Source: Desulfobulbaceae bacterium (GTDB lineage Bacteria > Desulfobacterota > Desulfobulbia > Desulfobulbales > Desulfocapsaceae). Taken from it: a stretch of DNA of 64,000 nucleotides. A program made the position numbers and the translations under genes. The notes below the pieces were generated by a model that searched no databases, was not told the DNA's origin, and worked only from the letters and a program-made list of their open reading frames with translations. Below are positions 25,688 to 43,313 of this stretch, piece by piece; within the stretch, counting starts at the first letter, position 1; every line of letters starts with the position of its first letter. The DNA lies in contig QKIH01000035.1 in NCBI GenBank assembly GCA_003249645.1, positions 6,495 through 70,494 on the forward strand. The letters are read 5' to 3'.

Positions 25688-27097
25688 ATGATGAAAATAA
25701 AGATAGCAGTTCTAGGCGGCGGCCCCGGAGGGTATTCAGCAGCTATCCGGGCAGCACAACTGGGCGGAGACGTCACCCTTGTCAATAATGACCAGCTGGG
25801 CGGGACATGTCTTAATTACGGCTGCATCCCTTCAAAAATGTTGAAAAAGGCCGGAGAAATTTTTTCCCATTGCATCGACTCAAGTCATCTCGGCATACGC
25901 ATCGAAACACCTCCCGTATTTGACATGGCGAAACATTTGGAGTATCAGCAGCAGACTATCCTGCAGCAGCAAAAAGGTGTCGAGGCTCTTCTCAAGAAAA
26001 ACGGCGTAAACCACCTTCAAGGCCAGGCGAGATTAACAGGTTTAAACTGTCTTGAGATATTACAAGGAGATGGAATCATCCAGCTTGAGTGGGACAAATT
26101 AATCATAGCAGCCGGAAGCAGCCCGTTATCAATTGGCGCGTTTGCCTTTGATCACCGACATATCCTCTCATCAACGGACATATTACGTCTTGTACAGCTT
26201 CCGAAATCGATTGTCATTGTCGGCGGGGGAGTTATCGGTTGTGAATTTGGTTCTATCTTTCGCGATCTTGGCTGCGAAGTTACCATCGTTGAAGCCGCTG
26301 ATCGCCTTCTCCCTCTGCCATCTCTTGACGAGGAAATATCGAAAAATCTTCAGCGCGAATTTAAAAAGAATAAAACGGTAGTTCTGACCAGCCATCTGGT
26401 CAACAGCGTTGATATTCGTAACAACCTGGTACAATGCAGTATTTCATCGGTCAAAACCGGGAAAAGCACAGTTGTCGAGGCTGAAAAGGTGCTTGTAGCA
26501 ATCGGACGAAAATCCAATGCTCAGTCACTGAATCTTGGCTGCATCGGCATACGGTGTGATTCAGCAGACTGGATAACAGTGGACAGCCGGATGCAGACCA
26601 GCTGTGAAAACGTTTATGCCATTGGTGATATTACCGGGCCGTACAGGCCGATGCTTGCGCACGTTGCCGCAGCAGAAGGAGAGGTCGCCGCAGAAAACTG
26701 CTTCGGCAAAGGCAAGAGCATGCGATACGACAATATCCCCAGCGGCATCTTTACAACTCCTGAGATAGGCTCCGTCGGCCTCTCGGCAGGGCAAGCACAG
26801 CAGCAGGGACTTGAAACAGCATCTGAAACAGTACTCTACCGCTCACTGGGAAAATCACATGCCACCGGTGAGATTGCAGGCCTTGCCAAGATTGTTTTTG
26901 AGCAAAACAGTCGGCAGATTATCGGCGTGCAGATCATCGGAGCAAGGGCAACAGATATCATTGCCGAAGCGGCTCTTGCTGTTACCATGAAGGTGACACT
27001 GAATGATCTGGTTGACACGATTCACGCACATCCGACCTTTGCCGAGATAATCAGGGAAACGGCCCAAAAAGCAGTTGGTTACCCGCTGCATGGATAA
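25688..27097 (+). CDS. lpd: dihydrolipoyl dehydrogenase
   Basis: 469 aa. FAD motif GGGPGGY, redox disulfide GGTCLNYGCIPSK, NAD motif GGGVIGCE and a C-terminal HAHPT. Confidence 0.92.
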   Translation: MMKIKIAVLGGGPGGYSAAIRAAQLGGDVTLVNNDQLGGTCLNYGCIPSKMLKKAGEIFSHCIDSSHLGIRIETPPVFDMAKHLEYQQQTILQQQKGVEALLKKNGVNHLQGQARLTGLNCLEILQGDGIIQLEWDKLIIAAGSSPLSIGAFAFDHRHILSSTDILRLVQLPKSIVIVGGGVIGCEFGSIFRDLGCEVTIVEAADRLLPLPSLDEEISKNLQREFKKNKTVVLTSHLVNSVDIRNNLVQCSISSVKTGKSTVVEAEKVLVAIGRKSNAQSLNLGCIGIRCDSADWITVDSRMQTSCENVYAIGDITGPYRPMLAHVAAAEGEVAAENCFGKGKSMRYDNIPSGIFTTPEIGSVGLSAGQAQQQGLETASETVLYRSLGKSHATGEIAGLAKIVFEQNSRQIIGVQIIGARATDIIAEAALAVTMKVTLNDLVDTIHAHPTFAEIIRETAQKAVGYPLHG

Positions 27098-27142
27098 CAG
27101 AAAATGTATGCATCTTTTTCCCCGAAGCTTACAAATAAGCCT

Positions 27143-27170
27143 TTGACATTTCTTCAATTTATCTGATACT
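27143..27170 (+). promoter_or_regulatory. candidate sigma70-type promoter of the flp/tad locus
   Basis: TTGACA (27143-27148), a 16-nt spacer, then GATACT (27165-27170), about 70 nt upstream of the flp ATG. Sequence match only. Confidence 0.35.
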
Positions 27171-27239
27171 CTTTGAGTGCAGTCCAACGTTGTCGTACAC
27201 TTACTGGGAAACCAAACCGAAGCATCGAGGAGAATCGCC

Positions 27240-27509
27240 ATGAGGTTATTAAAAAACAAAAACGGCCAGGGAATGACGGAATACATCATTATCGTAGCCC
27301 TGATTGCCATAGCAGCAATTGCAGCATTTACTTATTTTGGTCGTACTGTGCGTACCCAGACAACAGCAATGACCCAGTCCCTTGGCGGTGATGCCTCCGG
27401 CGCTAAAACTACCGAAGAAGGTCTGAGCACCATATCGAGCGATGCTGCAACCGCAGGCAAAGAGCAGCAAACGCTTAAAGATTACGTTCAGGAACCATCT
27501 GGAAACTAA
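27240..27509 (+). CDS. flp: Flp-family type IVb pilin
   Basis: MRLLKNKNGQGMTEYIIIVALIAIAAIAAF has the Flp motif (G/xxxxEY followed by a hydrophobic helix). GAGGAG RBS at 27228-27233. The upstream part of the tracked ORF was rejected. Confidence 0.85.
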   Translation: MRLLKNKNGQGMTEYIIIVALIAIAAIAAFTYFGRTVRTQTTAMTQSLGGDASGAKTTEEGLSTISSDAATAGKEQQTLKDYVQEPSGN

Positions 27510-27589
27510 CTTTATCTGTTTTCCATTATTCGAGGAGAACATGGTGGCTCTCCTGAACTGTCCCGTTCATTGCAACAGAACAGCTTGAA

Positions 27590-29350
27590 ATGGCAGGAGA
27601 AAATCGCTGTCATTTCAAGCTTTATAATCTTTTTGCGCTGAAATTCCCTCTTTCTTCTCAGCGGGGGCAGTCTTCTGTCTTTGTCCTTGTTATGCTGACC
27701 GTTGTTATTGTCAGCGCAATTTTTCTTTACAAGTCAGGTCGACTGACAACCGAGAAAATACAGCTTCAAAACGCCGCCGACGCAGCGGCTTACAGCGCCT
27801 CCGCCCTTGAAGCAAGATCAATGAATTTTGCGGCTTACACCAACCGTGCCATGGCAGGCAATGAAGTCGCCATAGCCCAGGCCGTAGGTCTGCTTTCTCT
27901 TGCCGATGAGTGGAAAGCCATCAACGACTACTTTGAAGTTTATGCCGATATCCTCGATGCAGCCGGGGCAGTCCTTGATATCTTCGGCGGTGCTGGGGCG
28001 CCGTTAAATACAATGGCAGAGGTCCTGCGAACAATCGGTGAGGGATATGAAGGCGCCGGAGACGGGCTTAACGCAATAATCCAACCCATTGCCGGCTACT
28101 GGGTCAAGGCCTTTTCAGTCATCAACACCATTTACAGCTATGCCCAGGAAACCTATCATCTCACCACCATCGCGCTGGTAAGTGATTCAATTTTCAAGAA
28201 TCTTGAAGGCAATGTGGTGGGGACGGAATATAACGGCAACCTCCTGCAGAACCTGTTTGACCGCTCCGGTGACAAGGCCATGATATCAGGGATGGACTAC
28301 ATCGCCCTGGTCGGTCATTTTGCCACCTACATTAACGGATACACCAAACGGTTCACAGTGGGCAGCAAGGATGAAGAAGGCAGGCTGGCAGCAACCGTCC
28401 GTGAAGCAAGAGATCCTTTCAGCAGCGGCGATACAGCAAAAAACAGCGACGGCGTCGAGGAAAACAGGGACTGGCGCATGGCTCTGGAATCAGAACACAT
28501 CACCCACTTCACCATCAATCTGCTGGTCAAGAAGATACGGATAAAAATCGGCTATTCATTTGCCTTCGGCATATACAGCAAAGGCGGATCCGAAGTCATA
28601 CAGAAAGACGACAAACAGTTTGCCTGGTCAGCAATTGACACTTCAGATCTAGAGGTTCAGCTGGCAATTTACCCCTTCTTCGATTTTCATCCGGGCATCC
28701 CAACAGGCGGCGGAGCCTCACAGGCAGCCTCTTCAGAAACTATACTCAATGAAGCGGACATCTCAAGTGATGTGAACAATGCTGTGCTGCCGGGTTACGG
28801 CGGTGCTCCTGATTACAGCATCAGCTGGGATGAGGCAAAGATAGTCATACCGGAAAAACAGATAGAAGGAGCTAACTACAGCGGGCTTAAGGCATACCGG
28901 GATGTGAAACCGAAGCAGGATTCAAATCAGGACAGCGGTTTTTTCCCTTTCAAGTCACCCTTCTTTCTTATCGGCGTTGTCAAAGACCTCGACGCCATGA
29001 ATGAAAACGAACCCAAAGCTGCCGGGGATGATTTTTCCCTGTCCCACGGCACACAGCATAAAAACCTGATTGCAACAGTTGCCAAATCCGAAGTCTATTT
29101 CAAACGGCCGACCGACCTCAGCTATTTTGCACGCGAAGACGGCAACCAGGAAAACTCAAACCTTTTCAGTCCATTCTGGCAGGCACGTCTGGTTCAGCCG
29201 AGCGAGTTTGACAGATTCATAACCATTGCTCTACAGCAGGGGAAATTGTGGATCTCCGAAAAGGCAAAAAAAGACATCGATAAAATCCCTTTTATCAACG
29301 TCGAGAAAATGTCCACCACCATAGAAAATTACCTGCAGAGGTTTTTATGA
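27590..29350 (+). CDS. TadG-like pilus assembly protein / large pseudopilin
   Basis: 586 aa. Prepilin-like N-terminus QRGQSSVFVLVMLTVVIVSAIF followed by LQNAADAAAYSASALEAR, as in the TadG N-terminal domain. Confidence 0.7.
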   Translation: MAGENRCHFKLYNLFALKFPLSSQRGQSSVFVLVMLTVVIVSAIFLYKSGRLTTEKIQLQNAADAAAYSASALEARSMNFAAYTNRAMAGNEVAIAQAVGLLSLADEWKAINDYFEVYADILDAAGAVLDIFGGAGAPLNTMAEVLRTIGEGYEGAGDGLNAIIQPIAGYWVKAFSVINTIYSYAQETYHLTTIALVSDSIFKNLEGNVVGTEYNGNLLQNLFDRSGDKAMISGMDYIALVGHFATYINGYTKRFTVGSKDEEGRLAATVREARDPFSSGDTAKNSDGVEENRDWRMALESEHITHFTINLLVKKIRIKIGYSFAFGIYSKGGSEVIQKDDKQFAWSAIDTSDLEVQLAIYPFFDFHPGIPTGGGASQAASSETILNEADISSDVNNAVLPGYGGAPDYSISWDEAKIVIPEKQIEGANYSGLKAYRDVKPKQDSNQDSGFFPFKSPFFLIGVVKDLDAMNENEPKAAGDDFSLSHGTQHKNLIATVAKSEVYFKRPTDLSYFAREDGNQENSNLFSPFWQARLVQPSEFDRFITIALQQGKLWISEKAKKDIDKIPFINVEKMSTTIENYLQRFL

Positions 29351-30339
29351 TGAAAGGACACATGGCAGTCAGAAATAACAGAGGTCAGGCAGCAACAGAG
29401 TTTCTTATCGCTGCAGCCTTTGTTCTGGTCCCGCTTTTCGTGATCATTCCGCTTATCGGCAAATATATCGATATCAGACATTCTCTCATCCAGCAGGCCC
29501 GCTATGAAGCATGGGAATATACGGTCTGGTACGGCCCGGATGAAAGCATCCTGAGCGGCGGAAAAGAATCGCAGAGGGTCGATCAGAAATCTTGGCGGGA
29601 TACCAGGGATGAGGCTAAAGCCTATTTTTTCACTGATCCGCATACAGCCTCTTACGGTGTCCCCGATTCACAGATTACTGATAATCCTATCTGGGTCGAT
29701 CACCATGGGCAGTCTTTATTTATTAACAGCGAATCAAAAATTAACGGAACACAGAAAGAGGCAGACAGCCCGGATCCGACAATGGGTGTCGTTGACACCG
29801 TCCTCAGCGGCATCAGCTGGGTTACCACCAATTACGGCAGTCTGCTCCATTATATCGATAAAGATGCCGGCGAATTCGACGCTATCTACACGAAGGGATA
29901 CTACAAGACATCGCCAACTGTATCTGTTCGCTCGGTAGGTATGGTGCTGCCTGAAACCGGTTTAGATCATGAGCAGGACAACAGTCTGCAGCAGCCGCTG
30001 GTGCTTCAGTCCAAAGCTGCAGTCTTAAGTAATTACTGGAATGCAGGATCAAAAGACCAGGCAGTCCATGAAGCGAAAGGCCTCGTTTTTTCGGGTATTC
30101 TTGAACCTGTATCAAAGCTCTTTAATGGAGTTCTCGGTTTCATTCAGCAAGGCATCAATTTTGCCGAGAAGTTTTTGCCCGTTGACATGAAATTGCCGAT
30201 GATGCCGGAATTCGGTTATGTGAAAGAAGATCTGATACCATATGAACACCTCGACGAGTCCGATGCCGACGGTGACAAAAAAAACAAACATGAAGTGAAG
30301 AAGATCGGCGGCTTATATTACTACCAGGAAAATGATTAA
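29347..30339 (+). CDS. TadE/TadF-like pseudopilin
   Basis: 330 aa. N-terminus NRGQAATEFLIAAAFVLVPLFVII...ARYEAWEY is TadE-like. Overlaps the preceding gene by 4 nt. Confidence 0.65.
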   Translation: MMKGHMAVRNNRGQAATEFLIAAAFVLVPLFVIIPLIGKYIDIRHSLIQQARYEAWEYTVWYGPDESILSGGKESQRVDQKSWRDTRDEAKAYFFTDPHTASYGVPDSQITDNPIWVDHHGQSLFINSESKINGTQKEADSPDPTMGVVDTVLSGISWVTTNYGSLLHYIDKDAGEFDAIYTKGYYKTSPTVSVRSVGMVLPETGLDHEQDNSLQQPLVLQSKAAVLSNYWNAGSKDQAVHEAKGLVFSGILEPVSKLFNGVLGFIQQGINFAEKFLPVDMKLPMMPEFGYVKEDLIPYEHLDESDADGDKKNKHEVKKIGGLYYYQEND

Positions 30340-31048
30340 CGCAATTCAAACCCATAAAGATATTAATGCGGTCTACAGGACGACAGTTTTTGTCCCGGCT
30401 CTGCTCTATTGCCTGCTCATCACGCATTCTTCATGGGCAAACCTTGCCGATTACCCGACGCCGTCCTGGCTTCAGTTCAATAGTGTAGCCGAAAACATGG
30501 TAATTAACAGCCTGCCTTCTGAAGTTTACTACTTCACCAGTGAGAGTTCTTCTGCAAGCACGCTCGATTATTATCGCAAACAGTGGCAGAGCCATCCCGA
30601 TTATTCACCGGGATACAGAGAAAGCTGGGTCTCTCCGTGGCATATATTAGCCAGAACGGAAGAAGGCAAGCTAATCACCTTGCAGATCCAGGATGACTCT
30701 GACGGCACTTCCCTTGGCTACTTCACAATCGCCGATATGAGCCGCGCACAGACAGTAGAAACATCCGATGTCCCCATGATGACCGGCAGCAAGATCCTCA
30801 ATCAGTCGCTCAGCGAAGATGGAGACAAAAAAAGCAGTGTCACCCTTGTCAGCAACAGCTTTTCCATTAGCAGCAACACGGATTTCTATCTCAGCTATTA
30901 CCTTGATGAAGGGTGGACCAATGATGTCCACCAGGAGGAAAGCGATTCTGTGACGCTGGTCTTCAGGAAAGGACGTCAGGAAGCAAACCTGGTAATCCGG
31001 CAGCTTTTCGGTGTAACGCAAATTGTTATCAATACGGTGATACAATGA
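30332..31048 (+). CDS. hypothetical secreted protein in the Tad locus
   Basis: 238 aa with an N-terminal hydrophobic signal-like segment. No family recognised. Translationally coupled on both sides by overlaps. Confidence 0.5.
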   Translation: MINAIQTHKDINAVYRTTVFVPALLYCLLITHSSWANLADYPTPSWLQFNSVAENMVINSLPSEVYYFTSESSSASTLDYYRKQWQSHPDYSPGYRESWVSPWHILARTEEGKLITLQIQDDSDGTSLGYFTIADMSRAQTVETSDVPMMTGSKILNQSLSEDGDKKSSVTLVSNSFSISSNTDFYLSYYLDEGWTNDVHQEESDSVTLVFRKGRQEANLVIRQLFGVTQIVINTVIQ

Positions 31049-31428
31049 GAAAAAGCATCCTGAATCTGCATGCGATTAGACTGCTTTTCCGAAGCGGCAG
31101 CCAGAAGGGACAATCGACCGTCGAATACGTGGTCGTCGTCAGCCTGCTGCTGGCAACCTTCCTTGGAAGCAGCTGCATCGACGATCTTGTTGATGCATTT
31201 CACAAAAAGTACAAAAGTTATGCCTTCGGCGTCTCCATCTCCGACCCTCCAAGCTCTTCCTTTGACAAGGAAGTAAATGACGGAGCCCAGAAGATCGCTG
31301 ACATAATGAAGATAATAGATGATCTTCTGCAATTTGTCGAAGGTGCAGATCCTGATGCAGGTGGGGCCGGAGACAACCCTGCCACTGAAGAGCTTGACGA
31401 ATTTGAACGCATAATCAAGAACCTTTAA
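31045..31428 (+). CDS. second Flp-like pilin with extended acidic C-terminal domain
   Basis: 127 aa. Leader ...SGSQKGQSTVEYVVVVSLLLATFLG has the same G-Q-x-x-V-E-Y signature as flp. The C-terminal ~70 aa are helical and acidic. Confidence 0.55.
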   Translation: MRKSILNLHAIRLLFRSGSQKGQSTVEYVVVVSLLLATFLGSSCIDDLVDAFHKKYKSYAFGVSISDPPSSSFDKEVNDGAQKIADIMKIIDDLLQFVEGADPDAGGAGDNPATEELDEFERIIKNL

Positions 31429-31448
31429 CCATACAACAGCAGGGATTT

Positions 31449-33617
31449 ATGGCTAAATTTGAATTGTTGCACACCAAGAGTGGACGGTTGTTTTTCATCG
31501 CCTTACTTTTTGCCCTCATGGCTGGTGCCGGGACCATACTGTATTTAAAATCCCTGGAACGCCGTATTGAAGAAAAATACACCCCCGCTAAAGAACAGAA
31601 GAGCAGGGTGGTTGTAGCAAGCAGCAATCTCAAAGCCGGTACGGTCCTGTCTCCAAACACGGTTTCTGTCCGTGAAATTCCAGCAACCTATGTCCCCAAA
31701 GAAGCAATCACTGCACAGCAGTTCAACACCATCAGCGGCGCCATTCTTACCGAAGATCTGGAACAGGGTAAAATGCTCACCATGGCCCATATCAACCTGA
31801 ATCTTCCTAAAGACCTGTCAGCCACGATCAAGGAAGGACACCGGGCAATCACTATCAGCTCGGACGAACTCCAGTCCATATCCGGTCTGCTCAGACCCGG
31901 CAACCGTATTGATATTTTCTCGAGGCTCAATTCATCTACCGCTCAAAATGCCAATATCGACTCACGCAACAGCGATGTCATTATCCCGGTTCTGGAAGAC
32001 GTGCTGATACTTGCAACCGGCAAAAAACCGGCTCGTCCCAACGAGGACGATTATCTCAATCTGAACGAAAATCAGCAGAAACATACCTACAATACCATTA
32101 CGCTGGAACTCTCTCCGGATAACGCAGCCCTGCTCAGTCTTGCCCGCTCGGAAGGGGAGCTTATTGCTGTTCTGCGCAACAAGGAGGACAACGGCGGCCT
32201 GCTGTTTGAAAAGATGACCCTGCAGGATCTTGCCGCCAACTCTGCAAAACTGGAAAATGAAGCACAGAAAAAGCTGGATAACCGTTTAGTCGATTCAGTT
32301 ACCAGAACAGCAGACGGCAAACTGGTCACCAAGGACGGGGTTGTCATCAACGACCCGAACGTTCACCTGAACAAAGACGGTCTGCTGGTTACAAAAGACG
32401 GAGTTGTCCTTTCCGGTCGCGGTCTGCACGTTGATTCTAACGGCCATATAGTGGACGAAAACGGCAAGCCGGTGGATACCGCCAGTCTGGTTGCAACAAA
32501 AGACGGCGGCATTGTCGATAAAAACGGCAACGTTCTCGACTCAAACGGCTATCATTCTGTAAAAGGAGGCTTTCTGGCTGACAAAAACGGGAATATCTAC
32601 ACCCCGGACGGACACCTGCTCAAAGGCGTCCATCTCGATAAGAACGGTAATGTCGTTACCAGCGACGGCAAACTACTCAAAGCCTCAGACCTCTCCATCT
32701 CTTCTGACGGAACAGTCAGTATAGCGCCAAAAGTTCCCGGAGTTCATGTCGGCCAAAACGGTGAACTGCTCAACGCTGACGGCAAGCCGGTTACTGCAGC
32801 GGACCTCGTTACCATCGACAAAGACGGCACAGTCAGAACCAAGGATGGCAGAATCCTCAAAGGGGTTCACATGGGGAAAGACGGTAAGCTCTATGATGCA
32901 AACGGCAATGAAGTAAAACCGGAAGATCTGGTTTCAGTCGGCCCAGATGGTTCTGTCACATATAAAAGTGCTGATGCATCTGGTGTTCATCTCGGAAACA
33001 ATGGAGACGTGCTCAATGCTGACGGAAAACCTGCATCGGCTACAGACCTGGTAACTGTCGGAGCCGATGGTCTTGTTCGTACAAAAGACGGGAAAGTGCT
33101 TGAAGGCGTCCATATGGGCAAGGACGGCAAGCTCTATGATGCAAACGGCAAAGAGATGAGTGCAAACGATGTCCTGCTGGCATCACAGGGTTACAAGGCA
33201 GGCAATAACGGCACAGTCGTCGGTCCGGACAGCAAAACTTATACCGCAAAAGATCTGGTAACTGTTGACCCGGATGGCACTGTCAGAACCAAGGACGGCA
33301 AGATACTCAAAGGTGTCTATCGCGACAAAAACGGCGTTTTACGAAACAGCGACGGAACACCGTTGACCGCCCAGGATGTCATTGCACAGAGCAGCGCCCA
33401 AAATATTGATAATGCTCAATCGGGCACGCTGCCGGGTGTAAGCGCCAGTTATTCTCCTGATCTGGCAACATCGATCAAGAACCAGGGAGAAATCAAGACC
33501 CAGCAGTTACGACAAATTGAGTTCATTATTGGCGGTTCCGGAAACGGTGCAGCCAAAACATTTACAGTGCCAGTTGAAGAAAAAAGCATGCAACCTCTTC
33601 CAGGAACCAAAGAATAA
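31449..33617 (+). CDS. cpaB: CpaB/RcpC-family pilus assembly protein with a long C-terminal repeat extension
   Basis: Residues 1-250 are a TM anchor, a SAF-like part (VVVASSNLKAGTVLSPNTVSVREIP) and an RcpC part (GHRAITISSDELQSISGLLRPGNRIDIF). Residues ~285-640 are repeats. Total length is 722 aa. Confidence 0.8.
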   Translation: MAKFELLHTKSGRLFFIALLFALMAGAGTILYLKSLERRIEEKYTPAKEQKSRVVVASSNLKAGTVLSPNTVSVREIPATYVPKEAITAQQFNTISGAILTEDLEQGKMLTMAHINLNLPKDLSATIKEGHRAITISSDELQSISGLLRPGNRIDIFSRLNSSTAQNANIDSRNSDVIIPVLEDVLILATGKKPARPNEDDYLNLNENQQKHTYNTITLELSPDNAALLSLARSEGELIAVLRNKEDNGGLLFEKMTLQDLAANSAKLENEAQKKLDNRLVDSVTRTADGKLVTKDGVVINDPNVHLNKDGLLVTKDGVVLSGRGLHVDSNGHIVDENGKPVDTASLVATKDGGIVDKNGNVLDSNGYHSVKGGFLADKNGNIYTPDGHLLKGVHLDKNGNVVTSDGKLLKASDLSISSDGTVSIAPKVPGVHVGQNGELLNADGKPVTAADLVTIDKDGTVRTKDGRILKGVHMGKDGKLYDANGNEVKPEDLVSVGPDGSVTYKSADASGVHLGNNGDVLNADGKPASATDLVTVGADGLVRTKDGKVLEGVHMGKDGKLYDANGKEMSANDVLLASQGYKAGNNGTVVGPDSKTYTAKDLVTVDPDGTVRTKDGKILKGVYRDKNGVLRNSDGTPLTAQDVIAQSSAQNIDNAQSGTLPGVSASYSPDLATSIKNQGEIKTQQLRQIEFIIGGSGNGAAKTFTVPVEEKSMQPLPGTKE
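32301..33368 (+). repeat. coding tandem repeats (short x-K-D-G-x-hydrophobic units nested in ~80-aa duplications)
   Basis: For example, GVHVGQNGELLNADGKPVTAADLVTIDKDGTVRTKDGRILKGVHMGKDGKLYDANGNE pairs with GVHLGNNGDVLNADGKPASATDLVTVGADGLVRTKDGKVLEGVHMGKDGKLYDANGKE, and a third partial copy follows. The DNA copies have diverged. Confidence 0.85.
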
Positions 33618-33620
33618 GAT

Positions 33621-35129
33621 ATGAAACAACAGTCACAGAGAATCTCCTGTACAGGTTTTCAATCACACCGCAGCCTGCTTATTACAATGCTTTTCCTGCT
33701 CACTTTTCTTTTGCTTGGAACGGGGCAGACGACACATGCCGCCGGCAGGCAAAACATTTCCATGTATCTTGGTGAAGTCAAAGTGATGGAGGTTGGCAAT
33801 GTAATCAGGGTGGCGCTTGGTAACCCAAAGGTAATATCCAATTCACTTCTTCACCCCGGTCAGCTGGTAATACTCGCCAATGCCGTGGGCATTACTTCCA
33901 TGCATCTCTGGCTCGAAGACGGCAGCGAAATGGAATTTGACGTACTGGTGAAGGAAAAGCAGTCCTTTGATTCCTATCTTGAAATCAAGCAGCTCCTTAC
34001 AACCATTCCAAGCGTCACTGTGAAAAAAGTCGGTGAACTGATCGTTCTGACCGGCACCATCAGGGCAGACCAGCAGGAGATATTCGAACGAATTGTCGGC
34101 CAGTTCAAAGGTGTTCTTAACCTCGTCACCCACGGTAACCCGTATCAGGAGATCAGTTCTTTGTTGACGGCAGTACCAAATCTTAAAGTAAGAACAGTTG
34201 GTTCCAATACTGTTCTATCCGGTGAAATCAGTGACGAATACTCAAAGATCATCAATCTGGTTACCGGAAAGTTCCCCAATGTCATCAACATGACCCGTGC
34301 CCAGGCTGCCATTGCCGGGAAAATGGTATACATGGAAGTCAAGATCATGGAAGTCAGCAAAAGTTTTTCTGAAAAACTCGGCATCAACTGGTCAAACCTC
34401 GGTATTGTCGGCCCTTCCCTTGAATTCGGCTGGCAGAGGACGAGAAACGGAGCATCCATCCTGAACGCTTCTGCAACCAGCTCTTCACTTAAAAAATCAG
34501 ACGGCATAGAGTATGGCGCCGGCTATATCGGCATTGCAACCGGCATCACCTCCACTATCAACCTGGCGGAAGATACCGGCGATGCAATATTATTAGCAGA
34601 ACCTCGACTGAGCGCACGATCAGGAGGCAAGGCAGAATTCCTTGCAGGAGGCGAATACCCCTTACCGGTTTCCAACGATGGCCAGGTAACCGTTGAATTT
34701 AAAAAATACGGTATCCAGCTGATGATCGAACCGGTTGTCGACGAACTCGGCAATATTCTTGCCCATGTAGATACTGAAGTTTCAACTATCGACGATTCCG
34801 TTGCAGTTCAGGACATTCCGGGCATAAAAAGCCGCAGCACCAAGACAGATATCAGTATGCGTGATAATCAGACCCTGGTTATTGCCGGACTGCTAAGCGA
34901 TGAGGCCGGCAAAAGCTTTGACAAGGTAAAAGGGCTCGGGGACATTCCCGTTCTAGGTGCACTTTTCCGTTCAAAAAGCTTTCAGAACAAACAGACTGAG
35001 CTGATCATATTCGTCACTCCGAGGGTCTATGACGCGACCAGTCCGATCAATATGGAAGCGATTGAAAAAGCCGCCAGAATCAGCCAGGACTACAACGAGC
35101 TTGTCAAAGGTGGGGGAATTCTTGATTAG
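33621..35129 (+). CDS. cpaC: Tad secretin CpaC/RcpA
   Basis: 502 aa. Signal peptide, a pilus-N-terminal domain (LGEVKVMEVGNVIRVALGNPKV), two BON-like repeats and a secretin domain (LAEPRLSARSGGKAEFLAGGEYP...GDIPVLGALFRS). Confidence 0.9.
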   Translation: MKQQSQRISCTGFQSHRSLLITMLFLLTFLLLGTGQTTHAAGRQNISMYLGEVKVMEVGNVIRVALGNPKVISNSLLHPGQLVILANAVGITSMHLWLEDGSEMEFDVLVKEKQSFDSYLEIKQLLTTIPSVTVKKVGELIVLTGTIRADQQEIFERIVGQFKGVLNLVTHGNPYQEISSLLTAVPNLKVRTVGSNTVLSGEISDEYSKIINLVTGKFPNVINMTRAQAAIAGKMVYMEVKIMEVSKSFSEKLGINWSNLGIVGPSLEFGWQRTRNGASILNASATSSSLKKSDGIEYGAGYIGIATGITSTINLAEDTGDAILLAEPRLSARSGGKAEFLAGGEYPLPVSNDGQVTVEFKKYGIQLMIEPVVDELGNILAHVDTEVSTIDDSVAVQDIPGIKSRSTKTDISMRDNQTLVIAGLLSDEAGKSFDKVKGLGDIPVLGALFRSKSFQNKQTELIIFVTPRVYDATSPINMEAIEKAARISQDYNELVKGGGILD

Positions 35130-35141
35130 AGGGTATGCATT

Positions 35142-36875
35142 ATGTTTGAAATCCTGCTGAAAGACAACAAAGGCAAGCTGCTCGAAACAAGCACCTGTGA
35201 AACCGGATCGTGCACGGTCGGCCGTTCGGGGCGTAATCTTATTAACCTGAAGGGTTGGCGTATTGCGGCCATTCATGCTGAATTTTCTCTTCAGTCAAAA
35301 GGTCTGTACGTCTTCGATCGATCTGGTGGTATCGGCATACTGGTTAATGGCACACCCGTTCCCTCATTCGGACCGCTTCATGCCAGTGATGAGATTCAGA
35401 TAGGGTCCTACCGCCTCACAGCCCATTATGACGAGCCAGTCCTTTCCTATTCTGAAACTGCTGTGAGCAGCCCCAAAGCGCCTGAACAGCCTGAAAAGGA
35501 CATCCCGGAAGAACACATCGAGCATTTTACTGCAAAACAGACCGGCAGAAATATCGGTGTACAGCATCTTGAACATGATGAACAGCACAGTCACCAGCAC
35601 AGCAGCAAACGCTTTCTGTGGCATAACCGTATTCACCAGAAACTCATGCTGGCCATGGATCTTCGCCGCACAGACGTTGAATCCATGGACGATAACAAGC
35701 TCAAGGAAACAGTCGAATCACTGATCAAGGAAATCATCGAATCGGTAAAAAATGATCTGCCTTCTGATGTGGACTGTGAACGGCTGGCCAAAGAGGTGTT
35801 GAACGAGGCAATCGGGCTCGGCCCACTTGAAGATCTGCTGGCAGACGGCAGCATCACTGAAATAATGGTCAACCGCTTCGATGATGTCTACATTGAAAGA
35901 CGTGGGAAACTGCAGAAAAGTGAAGTGACCTTCTCAAGCGACGATGCCGTACGTTCAGTTATTGAGAGAATCGTTTCCCCGCTTGGCCGCAGAATTGACG
36001 AAAGCTCTCCCATGGTCGATGGACGCCTGAAAGACGGCTCCAGGGTCAACGCCATCATTCCTCCTCTGGCAATAAAGGGCCCGACCCTTACTATCCGAAA
36101 ATTCTCCAAACAGAAACTGCAGATGCAGGATCTGATCGATTTCGGTGCAATTTCCGCTGCCATGGCCTCTTTTCTCGAAACAGCCGTCACCAATAGAAAA
36201 AATATCGTCATCTCCGGCGGTACAGGCAGCGGCAAGACAACCTTTCTCAACGTGCTGAGTAATTACATTCCTCACACCGAACGCATTATCACGGTTGAAG
36301 ACTCAGCAGAACTGAGACTCGGTCAGCCCCATGTTGTCTCCCTTGAAGCACGGCCTGCCAACATGGAAGGAGTAGGAGGCATAACCATTCGTGATCTTGT
36401 TAAAAACTGTCTGCGCATGCGGCCGGATCGGATCGTGGTCGGCGAGTGCCGAGGCGGAGAGGCCCTTGATATGTTGCAGGCAATGAATACCGGGCATGAC
36501 GGATCCCTTACCACCGTTCATGCCAACACCCCCCGTGATCTTATATCCCGTCTTGAGGTCATGGTTATGATGGCAGGAATGGACCTGCCGGATCGCGCAA
36601 TCCGCGAGCAGGTAACCTCTGCAGTACACCTTGTCGTTCAGCAGGCCCGATTTGCCGACGGTACCAGAAAAATCACCCATATTACCGAGATTACCGGTAT
36701 GGAAAGCGGCATGGTGCAGATGCAGGATATTTTTATCTATAAGCAGCGCGGGTTTGACAGTGAAGGAAGGGTGCTCGGCGACTTTAAGGCAACCGGCCGG
36801 GTTCCCGAGTTTTATGAAAACCTGCAGGAAAGAGGAATTCCTGCGGACATGTCTTTATTTGCGGTGAACGAATGA
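35142..36875 (+). CDS. cpaF: FHA-domain-fused Tad secretion ATPase CpaF/TadA
   Basis: 577 aa. N-terminal FHA pattern (CTVGRSGRNLINL...IHAEF...LYVFDRSGGIGILVNGTPV...IQIGSYRL). C-terminal T2SSE ATPase with Walker A GGTGSGKTT, Asp box and His box. Confidence 0.92.
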   Translation: MFEILLKDNKGKLLETSTCETGSCTVGRSGRNLINLKGWRIAAIHAEFSLQSKGLYVFDRSGGIGILVNGTPVPSFGPLHASDEIQIGSYRLTAHYDEPVLSYSETAVSSPKAPEQPEKDIPEEHIEHFTAKQTGRNIGVQHLEHDEQHSHQHSSKRFLWHNRIHQKLMLAMDLRRTDVESMDDNKLKETVESLIKEIIESVKNDLPSDVDCERLAKEVLNEAIGLGPLEDLLADGSITEIMVNRFDDVYIERRGKLQKSEVTFSSDDAVRSVIERIVSPLGRRIDESSPMVDGRLKDGSRVNAIIPPLAIKGPTLTIRKFSKQKLQMQDLIDFGAISAAMASFLETAVTNRKNIVISGGTGSGKTTFLNVLSNYIPHTERIITVEDSAELRLGQPHVVSLEARPANMEGVGGITIRDLVKNCLRMRPDRIVVGECRGGEALDMLQAMNTGHDGSLTTVHANTPRDLISRLEVMVMMAGMDLPDRAIREQVTSAVHLVVQQARFADGTRKITHITEITGMESGMVQMQDIFIYKQRGFDSEGRVLGDFKATGRVPEFYENLQERGIPADMSLFAVNE

Positions 36876-37723
36876 TACTAACCCTGTTCGTGACAGTATG
36901 CGCATCGATTGCAACCGGCGTTTTTGCCTGGCTTTTCTTCGAGCATTTCTCGCACAGGATTCTAGAAGCGAAAGACTCCATCTCTTCCACCACCGCACTG
37001 AAGTTTTCCGAGATGTTTCTCTTTGTCGACGTCACCCGCTACTTCAGGATTTATATAGCCCTCATTATCGGCCTGCCTGTTCTTGTCACCCTGCTCTCAG
37101 AAGATTTCCTGCTTGGCATCATCACTCTTCTGGCGCTCTTTGCAGTACCGCCGATGATGATCAACTCGATGACGAAGCGCCGCCTGAAAAAAATCGAGCA
37201 GCAGCTCCCCGATGCCCTGATGATGATATCAGGTTCACTGAAAGCCGGGGCAAGTCTTTCAAGCGCTATCGACAACCTGATACGGGAGAGCCCGGCACCG
37301 ATCAGTCAGGAGTTCGGTCTCATGCTGCGTGAGAGAAAGCTTGGCGTCGATCTCGACACCGCTCTTTCTCATCTTGAGCAGCGAATCCCGCTTGAAGATT
37401 TTTCACTGAGCATCTCCGCCATCAGAATCTCGCGGGAAGTAGGTGGAAACCTTGCAGAAACATTGGAATCTCTTGCGGAAACAATACGCAAAAAACTGAC
37501 GATGGAAGGAAAAATAGAGAGCCTCACCGCCCAAGGAAAATTACAGGGGATCGTCATGAGTTCGCTGCCTGTTCTGCTCGTAGGTGTTCTGATGAAGGTT
37601 GAACCTGCTGCCATGGGTATGCTGTTTACGACCAAACTCGGCTGGGCCGTACTACTGCTGATCATTGCCATGCAGCTTCTCGGCTTCCTGGCAATTAGAA
37701 AAATCACCACCATAGACGTCTGA
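36872..37723 (+). CDS. tadB: Tad inner-membrane platform protein TadB
   Basis: 283 aa with a T2SSF-like domain (LPDALMMISGSLKAGASLSSAI...). Overlaps cpaF by 4 nt. Confidence 0.85.
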   Translation: MILTLFVTVCASIATGVFAWLFFEHFSHRILEAKDSISSTTALKFSEMFLFVDVTRYFRIYIALIIGLPVLVTLLSEDFLLGIITLLALFAVPPMMINSMTKRRLKKIEQQLPDALMMISGSLKAGASLSSAIDNLIRESPAPISQEFGLMLRERKLGVDLDTALSHLEQRIPLEDFSLSISAIRISREVGGNLAETLESLAETIRKKLTMEGKIESLTAQGKLQGIVMSSLPVLLVGVLMKVEPAAMGMLFTTKLGWAVLLLIIAMQLLGFLAIRKITTIDV

Positions 37724-37726
37724 AAT

Positions 37727-38611
37727 ATGGATACAAGCTATCAGCTCATACTTGCATCGTTCTCAATCATATCAGCGCTTGCCCTGTTCTACTGTCTGGC
37801 ATCGCTTTATGACGATGTGCCGGAAGATGACAGAGAGTTCATGGATCCGCTGCCCAAAGTGCTGAAACTCGTCTGGCCGCTGGTCCGGTTGATAGCCTAC
37901 CACCTGGTCAGCCCCATCGCTCCATACGACTACGTCAAACACGTGGAGGAAAGACTTCAGAAAACCGGTGTCAGCTATCTGATGATGGCAGAGGAGTTTA
38001 TCGCCCTTCGTATCTTTACTGCTCTCTTCACTCTCCTTTTCGGCTCGCTGATACTCATTACTTTCAACGAATGGAATAATCTTCTGATTCTTATCCTGCC
38101 GGTGATCGGTTATCTCTATCCGCATATATGGGTCAGGGATATCCGCAAGAGACTTGAAGACGGCATATTGAGAACGCTGCCCGCTTATCTCGATTTCATT
38201 TCCATGGCAGTGGAAGCGGGCCTCAACTTCTCAGGAGCCATCGAACAGGCAAGACGCAAGGGCCCTAAAGGACCGCTTGTCAATGAATTCGGCATAGTTC
38301 TGCGTGATCTGCGGTCCGGTATAAACCGCGAAAATGCGCTGAAGCGTATGGCGGAACGCCTGGATATCCATGAACTGACAAGCTTTGTCAATGCCGTGGT
38401 CCAGGCAGAAAAAATGGGATCCGGCCTGGGCACCATTTTAAAGATACAGGCGGAACAGAGAAGAAACGAACGGTTTCAACGAGCTGAAAAAAAGGCCATG
38501 GAGGCACCTGTAAAACTGGTTGGCCCGCTTATCCTGTTTATTTTCCCGACCACTTTTATCGTGCTGGCCTTTCCGATTGTGATGAAATTTCTCCATGGTG
38601 GTCTTTTTTGA
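37727..38611 (+). CDS. tadC: Tad inner-membrane platform protein TadC
   Basis: 294 aa with a T2SSF-like domain (LPAYLDFISMAVEAGLNFSGAIEQ...). Confidence 0.85.
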   Translation: MDTSYQLILASFSIISALALFYCLASLYDDVPEDDREFMDPLPKVLKLVWPLVRLIAYHLVSPIAPYDYVKHVEERLQKTGVSYLMMAEEFIALRIFTALFTLLFGSLILITFNEWNNLLILILPVIGYLYPHIWVRDIRKRLEDGILRTLPAYLDFISMAVEAGLNFSGAIEQARRKGPKGPLVNEFGIVLRDLRSGINRENALKRMAERLDIHELTSFVNAVVQAEKMGSGLGTILKIQAEQRRNERFQRAEKKAMEAPVKLVGPLILFIFPTTFIVLAFPIVMKFLHGGLF

Positions 38612-38964
38612 GATACGGTACTCTTTGCAACGATACAGACAGGAAGGTCATCATACCGAAGGTGTCGATTACTGAAAACTGGATTGAACGGGCAAGAGGG
38701 CTGCTCGGTCGTGCTCAGCTGGAAGAGGGAGAAGCAATGCTGATATCTCCCTGCAATTCAATTCACACGTTTTTTATGCCTTACGCTATCGATGTGGTAT
38801 ATCTTGATAAAAAGATGCATATTCTCAAGATCTGCTCCGACCTTTCACCATGGAGCCTCAGCGGCTGCCGCACTGCCTTCATGGTGCTTGAGCTGCCTGC
38901 ACGGGCAGCATCAAAAAATAATCTTCAAACAGGAATGCGTTTATCATGGCAGGAAGATATATAA
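38608..38964 (+). CDS. DUF192-family protein
   Basis: 118 aa. RARGLLGR...MLISPCNSIHTFFMPYAIDVVYLDK is the DUF192 (COG1430) pattern. Confidence 0.75.
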   Translation: MRYGTLCNDTDRKVIIPKVSITENWIERARGLLGRAQLEEGEAMLISPCNSIHTFFMPYAIDVVYLDKKMHILKICSDLSPWSLSGCRTAFMVLELPARAASKNNLQTGMRLSWQEDI

Positions 38965-39428
38965 TCCGGGCTCTATTACTGCTCTTTCTTGCAGTTGTTT
39001 CATTGTCAGGCTGCGCCGCAACAAAGCCCGGCAAAACGGTCTTTGACTACGAGCAGGAAGCCAGCGAGGCCTATGCTGGCGGCAGGTATGATGTGGCTGT
39101 TAACCGTTATGAATACCTTGTTGAGCAGGTACCGAAAGACCCGAATTTCTGGTTCAGGCTGGCAAACTCCTATGCCAAAAACGGTGAACCGGAAAAAGCC
39201 GTTGTGGCCTATCAGAATACCCTGCTCCGCGACAGCACCTATGAAAAAGCATGGTATAATCTCGGTATCATCCAAATGCAGCAGGCACTGAAGACGTTTA
39301 TCGACATGCAGAAAGCCATGCCGCCGAACAGCCCAGTCCATTCGCTTGCTGAAGAGAAAATGAACGGTCTTTTTCTCCTGCTCGGCCAGAATCCAGATGA
39401 AGAACATCCTGCAGCCGACACCAAATAG
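38946..39428 (+). CDS. TPR-repeat lipoprotein (TadD-like)
   Basis: 160 aa. Lipobox LSGCAA and TPR repeats (FWFRLANSYAKNGEPEKAVVAYQNTLLRDSTYEKAWYNLG). Confidence 0.6.
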   Translation: MAGRYIIRALLLLFLAVVSLSGCAATKPGKTVFDYEQEASEAYAGGRYDVAVNRYEYLVEQVPKDPNFWFRLANSYAKNGEPEKAVVAYQNTLLRDSTYEKAWYNLGIIQMQQALKTFIDMQKAMPPNSPVHSLAEEKMNGLFLLLGQNPDEEHPAADTK

Positions 39429-40089
39429 ATTCCATCAGCTTTTCCAGGCATCCGGCCAGAGCATGGTCGAACTGCTGGCTATTTTAAGCGCAATGCTGCT
39501 GCTTATTTTCGGCACCATCCAGTTTGCTCTGATCTGGCATGCTAAGATCACCCTGAACTACGCCGTCTTTGAAGCCGTAAGAGCAGGAACCCTGAACAAT
39601 GCAACCTATGATGCTGTCAAGGAAGGCTTTGCGAGAGGACTCGCCCCGTTATACAGCTTTGACGAAAACGATGAAGATCAGGTAGGCGCCTTTCAGGTGG
39701 CTCGTTCAAAGATTTTGGAAGAGTTCGATTCAAGCGAACAGTTGATTCGTATTGAACGGTTGAACCCGACCGAGAACAGTTTTGCGGATTTTGCAGACGG
39801 GGCCGGCTATATCCCCAATGATAATCTCCGTTTTCGCTCATCAACCATCAGCCATCGATCCGGCAGCTCAATCCAGGATGCCAACCTGCTGCACCTCAGA
39901 GTCACGTACTGGTATCCGCTCTATGTTCCTCTGGTCAATAAGTTCATGTTCAACACGGTAATCTGTAGCGGAAAATGGAAAAAGGACAAGGTGTGCAGTC
40001 AGGATATTCCGCGCATTCCGCTGACATCGACAACTGTTTTACGCATGCAGACACCCGCTCTCAACACTCAGGGATTTTACCAACCGTAA
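39397..40089 (+). CDS. TadE-like pseudopilin
   Basis: 230 aa. ASGQSMVELLAILSAMLLLIFGTIQFALIWHAKITLNYAVFEAVRAG is a TadE N-terminal domain. Confidence 0.7.
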   Translation: MKNILQPTPNRFHQLFQASGQSMVELLAILSAMLLLIFGTIQFALIWHAKITLNYAVFEAVRAGTLNNATYDAVKEGFARGLAPLYSFDENDEDQVGAFQVARSKILEEFDSSEQLIRIERLNPTENSFADFADGAGYIPNDNLRFRSSTISHRSGSSIQDANLLHLRVTYWYPLYVPLVNKFMFNTVICSGKWKKDKVCSQDIPRIPLTSTTVLRMQTPALNTQGFYQP

Positions 40090-41054: not shown

Positions 41055-43313
41055 ATGGTAGGGCAAGCTACTTTATGCTATAAAGGGAAATGGAATTGTA
41101 ATACAGAGCAGTACACAGAAACGAATATCAAGCCCGGCGTTCACATCATGACCAAAGCAACCGATACGACCACGGAGCATTCAATCTCTGATAGCTCCTT
41201 GCAACCAAATCCTGCCACCCTAAAAAGTTCTTCGCAGCCATTTCCCCAGCAGAACATACTTAACAGGGAAATAGAAGAACGAAAACGGGCAGAACAGATC
41301 ACCCAGACTCTGTTTAAGATTTCCAGTGCAGTCAGCTCCAGCAAAAATCTGCAGGAGCTGTATCGTTCTATTCACCTTATTCTTGGTGATATCATAGACC
41401 TCACCAACTTTTACATTGCTCTCTATTCGAAAGAAACAGGACGGGTATGCTTTCCCTATTTCGTTGATCAATATGACAGCGGTCAAGTTTATTCAGATCA
41501 GATCAACCGGGAAAACTCCTTAACCGGCAGTGTTATCAAAAAAGCCGCCCCTGTATTTTTTGATGAGCAGGAACTGCGCCAAAGGACTGAAAAAAATCTC
41601 ATTGTCGGAACCACTCCGCTTGTGTGGATCGGCATCCCTTTGAAAAGGGGAGATGAAGTTATCGGAATAATCGCAACCCAGAGCTACGACAACCCGAACC
41701 TTTTTGACCAGATGGATCTTGACACTCTGGTTTCCGTCTCGGATCAGATTGCTCTGGCAATTGAGCGAAAACACTATGAACAGGCATTAATTTCCAGCGA
41801 GAAAAAATACCGCAATATTCTCGAAAGCATTGATGACGGTTATTTCGAAATAGATACTGATCTTTGTTTCTCCCTGGTTAACAGGGCGATATGTGAGATA
41901 CTTGGCGAAAAGGCAGAGAACCTGCTTGGCACACCCTGCTCAAAATTCATCTCTCCATATATCTACAGCAAAATAGAGCAGATGGTAAAAGACCTTGTCC
42001 AGAACGGTGAATCCGGCAAGATTATTGAAATTGAGTTCACTCCTAAAAAAGGGGAAAAACGCTTCCTCGAGGCAGCCTTTTCTCTCAGGCATAATGAATC
42101 TAATCAAGTCATAGGAATACGTGGCATCGGCAGGGATATAACGCAGAAAAAGCAGGCCGAAAAGAACAGAAAATTGCTTGAGGATCAACTTCAACAGGCC
42201 CAGAGACTCGAATCACTTGGCACTCTTGCCGGAGGAATAGCTCATGATTTCAACAATCTGCTCATGGGAATCCAGGGAAGAATTGACCTGATGCGAAATG
42301 ATCTGGCCAAGGACCATCCGCACAGCAAGCAATTAGAAAACATAGAAAACTGTGTTGAGCGGGCAGCCAATCTCACTTCCCGGCTTCTCGGCTTTGCCCG
42401 GGGCGGAAAATATGAACTGCAGCCGACCGATGTCAACAGACTCATAGAAGAGAGCATCACTATTTTCGGTCGAGCGAAAAAAGAGATTACCATCACAACC
42501 CACTTCGATCAAAAAGGCTGCATCATAGATGCTGCATCCAATCAGATTGAGCAGGTCTTTCTCAACCTTCTGGTCAATTCATCCCAGGCAATGTCTGGAA
42601 ACGGCACTATTTCGATCAACACATGCCGTATCATCATCAACGAACAGCAAGCTGAATTTCACACAATTGTTCCCGGCAGCTACATCCGGATAACATTGAC
42701 CGATAACGGTAAAGGCATTGCTAAAGAACACCTGCCAAAAATATTTGACCCGTTTTTCACAACTAAATCCCTTGGCGGCGGAACCGGGCTCGGACTTTCG
42801 ATGGTTTACGGTATAATCAAGAATCATCTGGGAGCAATTACGGTAGAAAGCCAAGTCAATCAAGGGACATGTTTTACTATATATCTGCCTGAATCCTCAC
42901 ATGAACTTCCCCAGGAAGTCAAAATTATTAAAAAAACCGAAAAAGGCAGCGAGCTCATTCTTCTTGTTGACGACGAAGAAATGATCACCGCGGTCGGCAA
43001 GGAAATGCTTGTTGTACTGGGCTACAAGGTAATAACAGCTTCATCCGGATACGATGCTGTTGAAATAGTAAAAAATCATCAGGACGAGATTGATCTGGTG
43101 ATCATTGACATGATTATGCCGAAAATGAGTGGCGGAGAACTGTTTGATCAGCTGATGCAGATTAATCCCGAACTCAAAACAGTCTTGTCAAGCGGCTACA
43201 GTGTTGAAGGAGATGCCCAGAAGATTCTCGACCGGGGCTGTTGCGGATTTATCCAAAAACCATTCAATCTCTCAAAACTCTCAGAAAAAATACGCGAAAT
43301 ACTGCAGGAATAG
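41055..43313 (+). CDS. hybrid sensor histidine kinase (GAF-PAS-HisKA-HATPase-REC)
   Basis: 752 aa. GAF-like and PAS-like regions, H-box GGIAHDFNNLL, G-boxes DNGKGI and GGGTGLGLSMV, and a C-terminal receiver (LLVDDEE...IIDMIMPKMSG). The start may be ATG 41148. Confidence 0.9.
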   Translation: MVGQATLCYKGKWNCNTEQYTETNIKPGVHIMTKATDTTTEHSISDSSLQPNPATLKSSSQPFPQQNILNREIEERKRAEQITQTLFKISSAVSSSKNLQELYRSIHLILGDIIDLTNFYIALYSKETGRVCFPYFVDQYDSGQVYSDQINRENSLTGSVIKKAAPVFFDEQELRQRTEKNLIVGTTPLVWIGIPLKRGDEVIGIIATQSYDNPNLFDQMDLDTLVSVSDQIALAIERKHYEQALISSEKKYRNILESIDDGYFEIDTDLCFSLVNRAICEILGEKAENLLGTPCSKFISPYIYSKIEQMVKDLVQNGESGKIIEIEFTPKKGEKRFLEAAFSLRHNESNQVIGIRGIGRDITQKKQAEKNRKLLEDQLQQAQRLESLGTLAGGIAHDFNNLLMGIQGRIDLMRNDLAKDHPHSKQLENIENCVERAANLTSRLLGFARGGKYELQPTDVNRLIEESITIFGRAKKEITITTHFDQKGCIIDAASNQIEQVFLNLLVNSSQAMSGNGTISINTCRIIINEQQAEFHTIVPGSYIRITLTDNGKGIAKEHLPKIFDPFFTTKSLGGGTGLGLSMVYGIIKNHLGAITVESQVNQGTCFTIYLPESSHELPQEVKIIKKTEKGSELILLVDDEEMITAVGKEMLVVLGYKVITASSGYDAVEIVKNHQDEIDLVIIDMIMPKMSGGELFDQLMQINPELKTVLSSGYSVEGDAQKILDRGCCGFIQKPFNLSKLSEKIREILQE

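Follow-up and report, generated by a model that had tools for sequence, protein, structure and literature searches.

How can a Tad pilus be assembled from an operon that encodes neither the organizer TadZ/CpaE nor a prepilin peptidase? This question is raised by a Tad/Flp pilus locus in the genome bin of a Desulfobulbaceae bacterium (GenBank assembly GCA_003249645.1). The 64-kb stretch of DNA that we analyzed, referred to here as the window, corresponds to positions 6495-70494 of an 83-kb contig (QKIH01000035.1, here contig C95). The bin is 87% complete in 182 contigs, and the bins most closely related to it belong to Desulfocapsaceae/Desulfobulbales. TadZ/CpaE is regarded as the organizer that initiates Tad assembly, and Caulobacter forms no machine when TadZ/CpaE is absent (PMC12637624). 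Our results indicate, with a probability that we place at roughly 0.72, that the locus is a complete and self-contained Tad (type IVc) pilus operon of a conserved, horizontally spread subtype that has neither TadZ/CpaE nor a prepilin peptidase of its own.

Gene families were assigned by Pfam and NCBIfam scans. Thirteen co-directional open reading frames (ORFs), all of them intact, occupy positions 27240-40089 of the forward strand, and their packing is operon-like: neighboring genes overlap by 4-32 nucleotides (nt) at seven of the twelve junctions, and the remaining gaps measure 3-80 nt (Table 1). The original prediction, which had been made from the sequence without database searches, listed these thirteen genes in this order, and the family scans supported most of their identities. 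The features of Tad/Flp membership that were found are a CpaF/TadA-type ATPase, the TadB and TadC pair, a Flp pilin, RcpA/CpaC together with RcpC/CpaB, and TadE/TadG-type minor pilins; those absent are a locus-encoded ParA/MinD-like TadZ/CpaE and a dedicated short A24 peptidase, TadV/CpaA. The core of the ATPase scored 425 bits against the solved Caulobacter CpaF (9e24), and this protein, in which the core is preceded by a forkhead-associated (FHA) domain, is the only CpaF-type ATPase in the window genome. Flp1 scored 24.3 bits with the Flp_Fap model, under the cut-off of 32.2; its N-terminus is clearly Flp-type. No Pfam or NCBIfam match was obtained for TadE1, for the second Flp-like pilin, Flp2, or for an exported 238-residue protein, here called Unk238. 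TadE1 is kept at its position across related loci, among which the CpaB proteins range in length from about 260 to 835 amino acids (aa).

The locus had been predicted to lack both TadZ and TadV, with TadV missing from the rest of the window as well, and our searches found neither of them in the window or on the whole 83-kb contig. The TadZ_N model (PF16968) gave no match even in control genomes and was uninformative. TadZ was therefore sought by AAA_31, by Walker A motifs and by real TadZ sequences taken from canonical loci. No ORF with a ParA-type Walker A motif (KGGxGK[ST]) was found in the six frames of the window or in 80 related loci, and none of the 12 AAA_31 matches in the genome falls on contig C95. 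Against the window genome, the canonical TadZ sequences matched only FlhG, ParA and short receiver-like stretches, and the canonical TadV sequences matched PilD only; neither set of queries found anything in the 80 related loci. Weak TadZ-like matches on contigs C65 and C173 were rejected as FlhG of a flagellar cluster. Contig C65 (2392 bases) is a near-duplicate of the flhG-fliA stretch at C173:30607-32769, which probably reflects strain heterogeneity in the bin. The search of the genome for tadV/cpaA yielded a single good Peptidase_A24 gene, located on contig C134 and not adjoining pilus genes. Its 263-aa product is of the PilD type and has both an N-domain with a zinc finger and the motif GGGD. 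A second, weak Peptidase_A24 match, on contig C50, was discarded because it is an ABC-transporter permease.

Since the genome is 87% complete, the absence of tadZ and tadV from it rests on relatives. We found 466 relatives of the ATPase and compared the loci of the best 80, which include the FHA domain because they match from residue 1. Neither tadZ nor tadV was present within 10 kb of the cassette in any of these loci (0/80), and in two closed Desulfobulbales relatives the nearest AAA_31 match was more than 90 kb from cpaF. Five isolate genomes with the cassette were examined for A24 peptidases, and four of them carry a single gene of PilD size; the fifth, Shewanella hanedai, carries a second one inside a separate canonical tad locus. 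Exactly one A24 gene, again of PilD size, was present in 5/5 Desulfobulbales relatives, two of which are closed or nearly closed. The loss of TadZ and TadV is therefore real and not an assembly gap, having been seen in 80/80 related loci and in closed relatives, and the machine that had been called divergent and Tad-like is a Tad subtype in which both proteins are lacking throughout the family. Two relatives that belong to one genus have their single pilD about 10-16 kb away from the cassette (G072, pilD at 285781 and cpaF at 304112 of contig C1; G193, pilD at 45114 and cpaF at 27633 of contig C64), and in the relative G086 it lies about 1 Mb away.

Five canonical Tad loci served as positive controls, one in S. 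hanedai and four from the window's own order. The S. hanedai locus has the order flp-tadV-rcpCAB-tadZ-tadA-tadBCDEF. A short A24 peptidase follows flp in 5/5 of the control loci (Pfam-confirmed in the two that were scanned), and a ParA/AAA_31-type protein of 386-411 aa is encoded directly before cpaF, also in 5/5; the receiver-like N-terminus of TadZ was detected in two. The canonical cpaF products are about 420-460 aa long and have no FHA domain. In S. hanedai, the canonical locus (L110, G002:C11:120000-139999) and a cassette of the FHA type (L072) are located 215 kb apart on the same contig, making this organism a natural strain for comparing the two Tad subtypes.

Among the best 80 relatives, the order flp, tadG, tadE-like, Unk238, flp2, cpaB, cpaC, FHA-cpaF, tadB, tadC, DUF192, TPR, tadE was kept with few rearrangements. 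One rearranged locus is that of Limnohabitans sp. 2KL-51 (L071), which reads flp-cpaB-cpaC-Unk238 and, after a gap of about 4 kb, FHA-cpaF-tadB-tadC-DUF192-TPR-tadE-tadG-tadE-like. The hosts include Desulfocapsaceae, Desulfobulbaceae, Desulfuromonadaceae, Shewanella, Pseudoalteromonas, Alkalimonas, Nitrincola/Oceanospirillaceae, Cellvibrionaceae, Comamonadaceae, Oxalobacteraceae, Thiobacillus/Sulfuricella, Lysobacteraceae, Acidithiobacillus and Arenicella. The order is thus standard for a large cassette family that extends over several phyla, and the window locus is for this reason an ordinary member of an unstudied subtype. The original prediction had allowed that tadZ and tadV might lie just outside the locus, which is not so, and that the gene order might be standard among relatives, which for the cassette family it is. 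The genes beside the 13-gene block vary even among the nearest relatives, and the 13 genes therefore behave as a cassette. In 13 Shewanella, Pseudoalteromonas and Alkalimonas loci (L065, L067, L070, L072, L076-L080, L082, L085, L087 and L094), a protein of about 1400 aa is encoded directly after the cassette, about 15 kb into the locus. TIG/IPT was the only domain detectable in the one representative scanned, and the protein may be a cargo or an adhesin. Immediately upstream, 12 loci of this group also have a gene for a LuxR-type regulator.

An even sample of 201 genomes from the order contained FHA-type cpaF in 8, the window genome included, which makes the subtype a minority of patchy occurrence in this lineage. 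These FHA-type sequences align from residue 1 to about residue 574, and the other seven are 63-69% identical to that of the window. Canonical cpaF without an FHA domain was found in about 25 of the 201 genomes. A tree of the ATPase core was built from 81 sequences of the FHA type, 20 canonical ones and 3 distant ATPases, with no Kil sequence among them. The canonical rows formed one clade (100/98). The window sequence fell in a clade of 17 Thermodesulfobacteriota rows (100/99), which is nested in a 44-row clade that otherwise consists of Gammaproteobacteria (99/92), a placement that fits horizontal spread. When the tree was rooted on the distant ATPases, the canonical clade nested among basal FHA-type rows, although the outgroup branches are very long and make this rooting unreliable. 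On that rooting, the FHA type could even be nearer to the ancestral bacterial Tad system than the textbook systems are, a reading that we regard as unlikely.

The prepilins of the subtype share a signature at the predicted cleavage site (marked by a bar), with the pattern G|Q..[VT]E[YFL] in the window and in loci L022-L101. Gln occupies position +1 in 53 of 55 Flp1 family members, which have E at +5 and Y at +6, and in all 22 Flp2 sequences with a detected motif (G|Q...EY; 23 sequences examined). It is likewise found at +1 in 52/58 TadG members, 50/64 TadE1 homologues (G|Q...E) and 64/72 TadE2 homologues. In the canonical loci, both those from the same order and that of S. hanedai, the cleavage site reads G|V or G|A instead. 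The Aggregatibacter archetype also has five prepilin-like proteins (flp-1, flp-2, tadE, tadF and tadG), so that the count of five given for the locus stands while its description as unusually rich does not, the number being equal to the canonical one. A Gln at +1 with a Glu at +5, in sites of the form KG|Q..., is the signature of the archaeal Epd pilins, which are cut by EppA (PMC4371748), and the window prepilins share both residues with them. EppA, however, is a dedicated large A24 peptidase of which the window has no counterpart, and the window machinery is that of a diderm bacterium; the resemblance may have arisen by convergence. The N-terminal Gln of the mature pilins could cyclize to pyroglutamate.

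How, then, might such an operon work? PilD is the most probable peptidase and is predicted to cut Flp1, Flp2, TadG and both TadE-like proteins in trans. We propose PilD because complete genomes of carriers encode no other A24 enzyme, because PilD of Bdellovibrio bacteriovorus was shown to process Flp1 (bioRxiv 10.64898/2026.07.08.737194) and because peptidase sharing is well known. TadB/TadC and CpaF would polymerize Flp1 as a fiber in which Flp2 would be a minor Flp, and the filament would exit through a periplasmic CpaB ring and an outer-membrane pore made up of the CpaC secretin and the TPR lipoprotein, the latter of which would help to insert the secretin. TadG and the two TadE-like pilins would form a priming or tip complex; a comparable complex has been modeled for TadE/F/G and KilL/M/N (PMC12075869). 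The likely output would be surface attachment or biofilm formation.

The replacement of TadZ is a more speculative matter. The FHA domain is the obvious candidate, since FHA fusion and tadZ loss coincide in every locus examined. Together with the disordered linker of about 100 aa that follows it, this domain might take over the recruitment or gating role of TadZ. Another candidate is the cytoplasmic DUF192 protein, which perhaps works with the FHA domain in that role, and Ser/Thr-kinase control might be added in some lineages. The FHA domain of the window protein scored 33.5 bits (cut-off 20.7) and retains the Arg, His and Asn residues, of which His and Asn are invariant in the family.

Several observations weigh against this reading of the locus. 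Flp of Pseudomonas aeruginosa needs its own peptidase, FppA, and not PilD, and the completeness of the window genome, at 87%, limits what can be concluded from that genome. The Ser of the FHA SxxH motif is Ala in the window (in the family, A 41, G 16, S 14), and the Arg is Lys in 55/72 family sequences; with the phosphate-binding Ser replaced and the Arg mostly Lys, it is doubtful that the domain reads phosphothreonine. The linker of about 100 aa between FHA domain and CpaF core shows no conservation across the family, and a search for an invariant Thr gave none. A kinase and/or PP2C phosphatase was present in the 10-kb flanks of only about 10/72 loci, all of them in one gammaproteobacterial clade and none in a Desulfobulbales locus. 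Kinase/PP2C linkage was accordingly dropped as a family-wide rule, as was the Thr of the conserved DLRRTDV motif after the linker as an FHA ligand, this residue being Val in many family members.

In one clade of Cellvibrionaceae/Pseudomonadales, the cassette is directly followed by genes for a Ser/Thr kinase and for a PP2C phosphatase (L043, L047 and L059, at about 15.1-17.9 kb), and the kinase of the L043 representative is of the CHASE2 type. Oceanospirillaceae/Nitrincola and a few other loci (including L041, L049 and L053) have a kinase or PP2C elsewhere in the 10-kb flanks. The window genome has four Hanks-type kinases, which are located elsewhere in the genome. A fuller scheme, in which the FHA-type cassette is a distinct Tad lineage that assembles by rules of its own, would join these elements: Epd/EppA-like G|Q...E pilins cut by PilD, their N-terminal Gln maybe converted to pyroglutamate, the TadZ hub replaced by an atypical FHA domain plus DUF192, and a CHASE2 kinase/PP2C switch in some lineages. 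As a whole, this combination seems to us unlikely.

We also considered whether a conserved unknown protein fills the gap, with DUF192 as a TadZ-like organizer or with Unk238 or DUF192 as an unrecognized processing factor. DUF192 was present in 69 related loci, in none of which it has an N-terminal hydrophobic segment or signal peptide; its start overlaps the tadC stop, and no BLAST match to it was detected in the five canonical loci examined. Unk238 is subtype-specific, was present in about 58 related loci and has no curated family model in Pfam or NCBIfam; its family comprises 1146 clusters at E<=1e-10 among 1.84 billion representatives. An AlphaFold2 model of it has high confidence (mean predicted local distance difference test score 88.7) and contains two beta-sheet/helix modules, and a fold search against the PDB gave no credible match (template modeling score below 0.25). 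Neither protein, however, has an NTPase motif, membrane helices or A24-like paired catalytic Asp residues. Moreover, no published function of DUF192 was found in the literature, nothing ties it physically to CpaF, and Unk238, being exported, cannot be the enzyme that removes leader peptides at the cytoplasmic side of the membrane. An assignment of Caulobacter CpaM as a DUF192 protein was wrong, since CpaM is annotated as a polysaccharide deacetylase. Such a substitution by one of these two proteins is, in our estimate, improbable.

The remaining two explanations fared less well. The original prediction had suggested a role in contact-dependent or long-reach activity, and a Kil-like derivative of Tad that serves contact-dependent killing or another long-reach cell interaction, as in Myxococcus xanthus, would agree with the FHA-fused single ATPase and the lack of TadZ, both of which Kil shares (PMC8460266). 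In addition, the dedicated Kil peptidase is dispensable and PilD has been proposed as its substitute (PMC8460266), TadE/F/G-type tip complexes can be functionalized (PMC12075869), and the window CpaB has an unusual repeat extension. However, the window secretin is full-length (502 aa, with pilus-N and BON-like N-terminal domains), TadG is present and the pilin number is canonical. The FHA domain of CpaF is also the only one in the locus and on contig C95, the other three FHA matches in the genome are not beside pilus genes, and family scans of the locus detected neither toxin nor effector domains. The carriers, which include sulfate reducers, Shewanella, Pseudoalteromonas and Comamonadaceae, are none of them known predators. 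These findings speak against a contact-dependent or long-reach role, which we regard as very unlikely. The fragmented bin, with 87% completeness and 182 contigs, could in turn suggest an artefact, tadZ and tadV having been lost to the missing part, or else a locus that is a degenerating remnant. Yet 13/13 ORFs are intact, the same absences occur in 80/80 loci, including those of isolates, and two closed genomes have neither a second A24 peptidase nor a nearby ParA-type gene, so that artefact or decay has hardly any probability left. A complete Tad operon without TadZ and TadV thus remains the reading that we favor.

Compared with the canonical Tad systems (Aggregatibacter flp-tad-rcp, Caulobacter pilA-cpaA-K and P. 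aeruginosa flp-rcp-tad), the window locus has in common a Flp with E at +5 and Y at +6, TadE/F/G-type minor pilins, CpaB, the CpaC secretin, the CpaF core, the TadB/TadC pair and a TPR lipoprotein. It differs from them in lacking TadZ/CpaE and TadV/CpaA, in the FHA domain and linker of CpaF, in having Gln in place of Val/Ala at +1 in each prepilin, in the additional Unk238 and cytoplasmic DUF192 proteins, and in the placement of minor pilin genes ahead of the machinery genes. The domain architecture of its ATPase is that of class III CpaF (FHA, intrinsically disordered region, CpaF), exemplified by Achromobacter xylosoxidans E3HIW0 (PMC12019362), and the related loci in our comparison include many Betaproteobacteria. 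The paper on class III deals with the classification of the ATPase alone and makes no mention of TadZ/CpaE; it contains no link between FHA fusion and tadZ/tadV loss, no G|Q signature and no 13-gene cassette (PMC12019362). The Kil system of M. xanthus (PMC8460266, PMC12075869) shares with the window an FHA-fused ATPase, the absence of TadZ and, possibly, dependence on PilD, but it alone has two gene clusters, many FHA proteins, a short secretin without N0 and the dedicated KilA peptidase, and its function depends on a complex resembling a type III secretion system. The tad loci of B. bacteriovorus likewise have no TadV, whereas TadZ is kept there as a TadZ-TadA fusion and the tad genes are dispersed (bioRxiv 10.64898/2026.07.08.737194); the window has no ParA-type domain and a single cassette. 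A search of the open literature, with subscription journals outside its scope, found no description of the 13-gene cassette, the G|Q signature or the DUF192 and Unk238 genes.

Table 1. Features of the Tad operon and its upstream region in the window (window coordinates; bars mark predicted cleavage sites).
Feature	Position	Strand	Evidence
Sigma-70-like promoter candidate 5' of flp1, TTGACA-16-GATACT	27143..27170	+	10/12 consensus matches
Flp1, probable major pilin, 89 aa	27240..27509	+	predicted cleavage MRLLKNKNG|QGMTEY, then hydrophobic helix
TadG-like large minor pilin, 586 aa	27590..29350	+	PF13400 31.2 bits; G|QSSVFV
TadE1, TadE/TadF-like minor pilin, 330 aa	29347..30339	+	G|QAATEF; assigned by N-terminal motif only
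Unk238, exported protein, 238 aa	30332..31048	+	signal peptide ...SWA|N
Flp2, second Flp-like pilin, 127 aa	31045..31428	+	G|QSTVEY; acidic C-terminal extension
CpaB/RcpC alignment protein, 722 aa, long repeat extension	31449..33617	+	SAF and RcpC (79.9 bits); TIGR03177 144 bits
CpaC/RcpA secretin, 502 aa	33621..35129	+	Secretin 134.7 bits; T2SS-T3SS_pil_N 45.5 bits; BON-like domain
FHA-linker-CpaF motor ATPase, 577 aa, class III architecture	35142..36875	+	FHA 33.5 bits; T2SSE 218.5 bits
TadB platform protein	36872..37723	+	T2SSF 60.8 bits
TadC platform protein	37727..38611	+	T2SSF 62.9 bits
DUF192 protein, 118 aa, without signal peptide	38608..38964	+	70.9 bits; start overlaps tadC stop
TPR lipoprotein, 160 aa, TadD-like pilotin candidate	38946..39428	+	lipobox LSGC; TPR_16 46.9 bits and other TPR models
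TadE2, TadE-family minor pilin, 230 aa	39397..40089	+	PF07811 39.5 bits; G|QSMVEL

Promoter-like matches were no commoner in the region than in shuffled sequence, and the site at 27143-27170 is to be read as no more than a match to the consensus. Across the operon (window 26000-40000) the G+C content is 47.5-51%, compared with 43-45% immediately downstream and 39-44% over the initial 20 kb of the window, a contrast that fits, weakly, with acquisition of the cassette. About 1 kb downstream of the operon, at 41055-43313 of the window, a hybrid GAF-PAS histidine kinase with a receiver domain is encoded; it is not conserved beside related cassettes, with a partial match only in locus L028.

Altogether, the sequence evidence suggests that the window organism probably makes one PilD-dependent adhesive pilus of the Tad type. 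A large, conserved family of Tad operons without TadZ and without its own peptidase points to a second, unstudied way to build and place such a pilus. Cultured carriers exist in Shewanella, Pseudoalteromonas, Limnohabitans and Acidithiobacillus, which makes the proposal directly testable, and Unk238, the cytoplasmic DUF192 protein and the diagnostic G|Q signature are usable by annotation pipelines and by models of type IV filaments (TFF).

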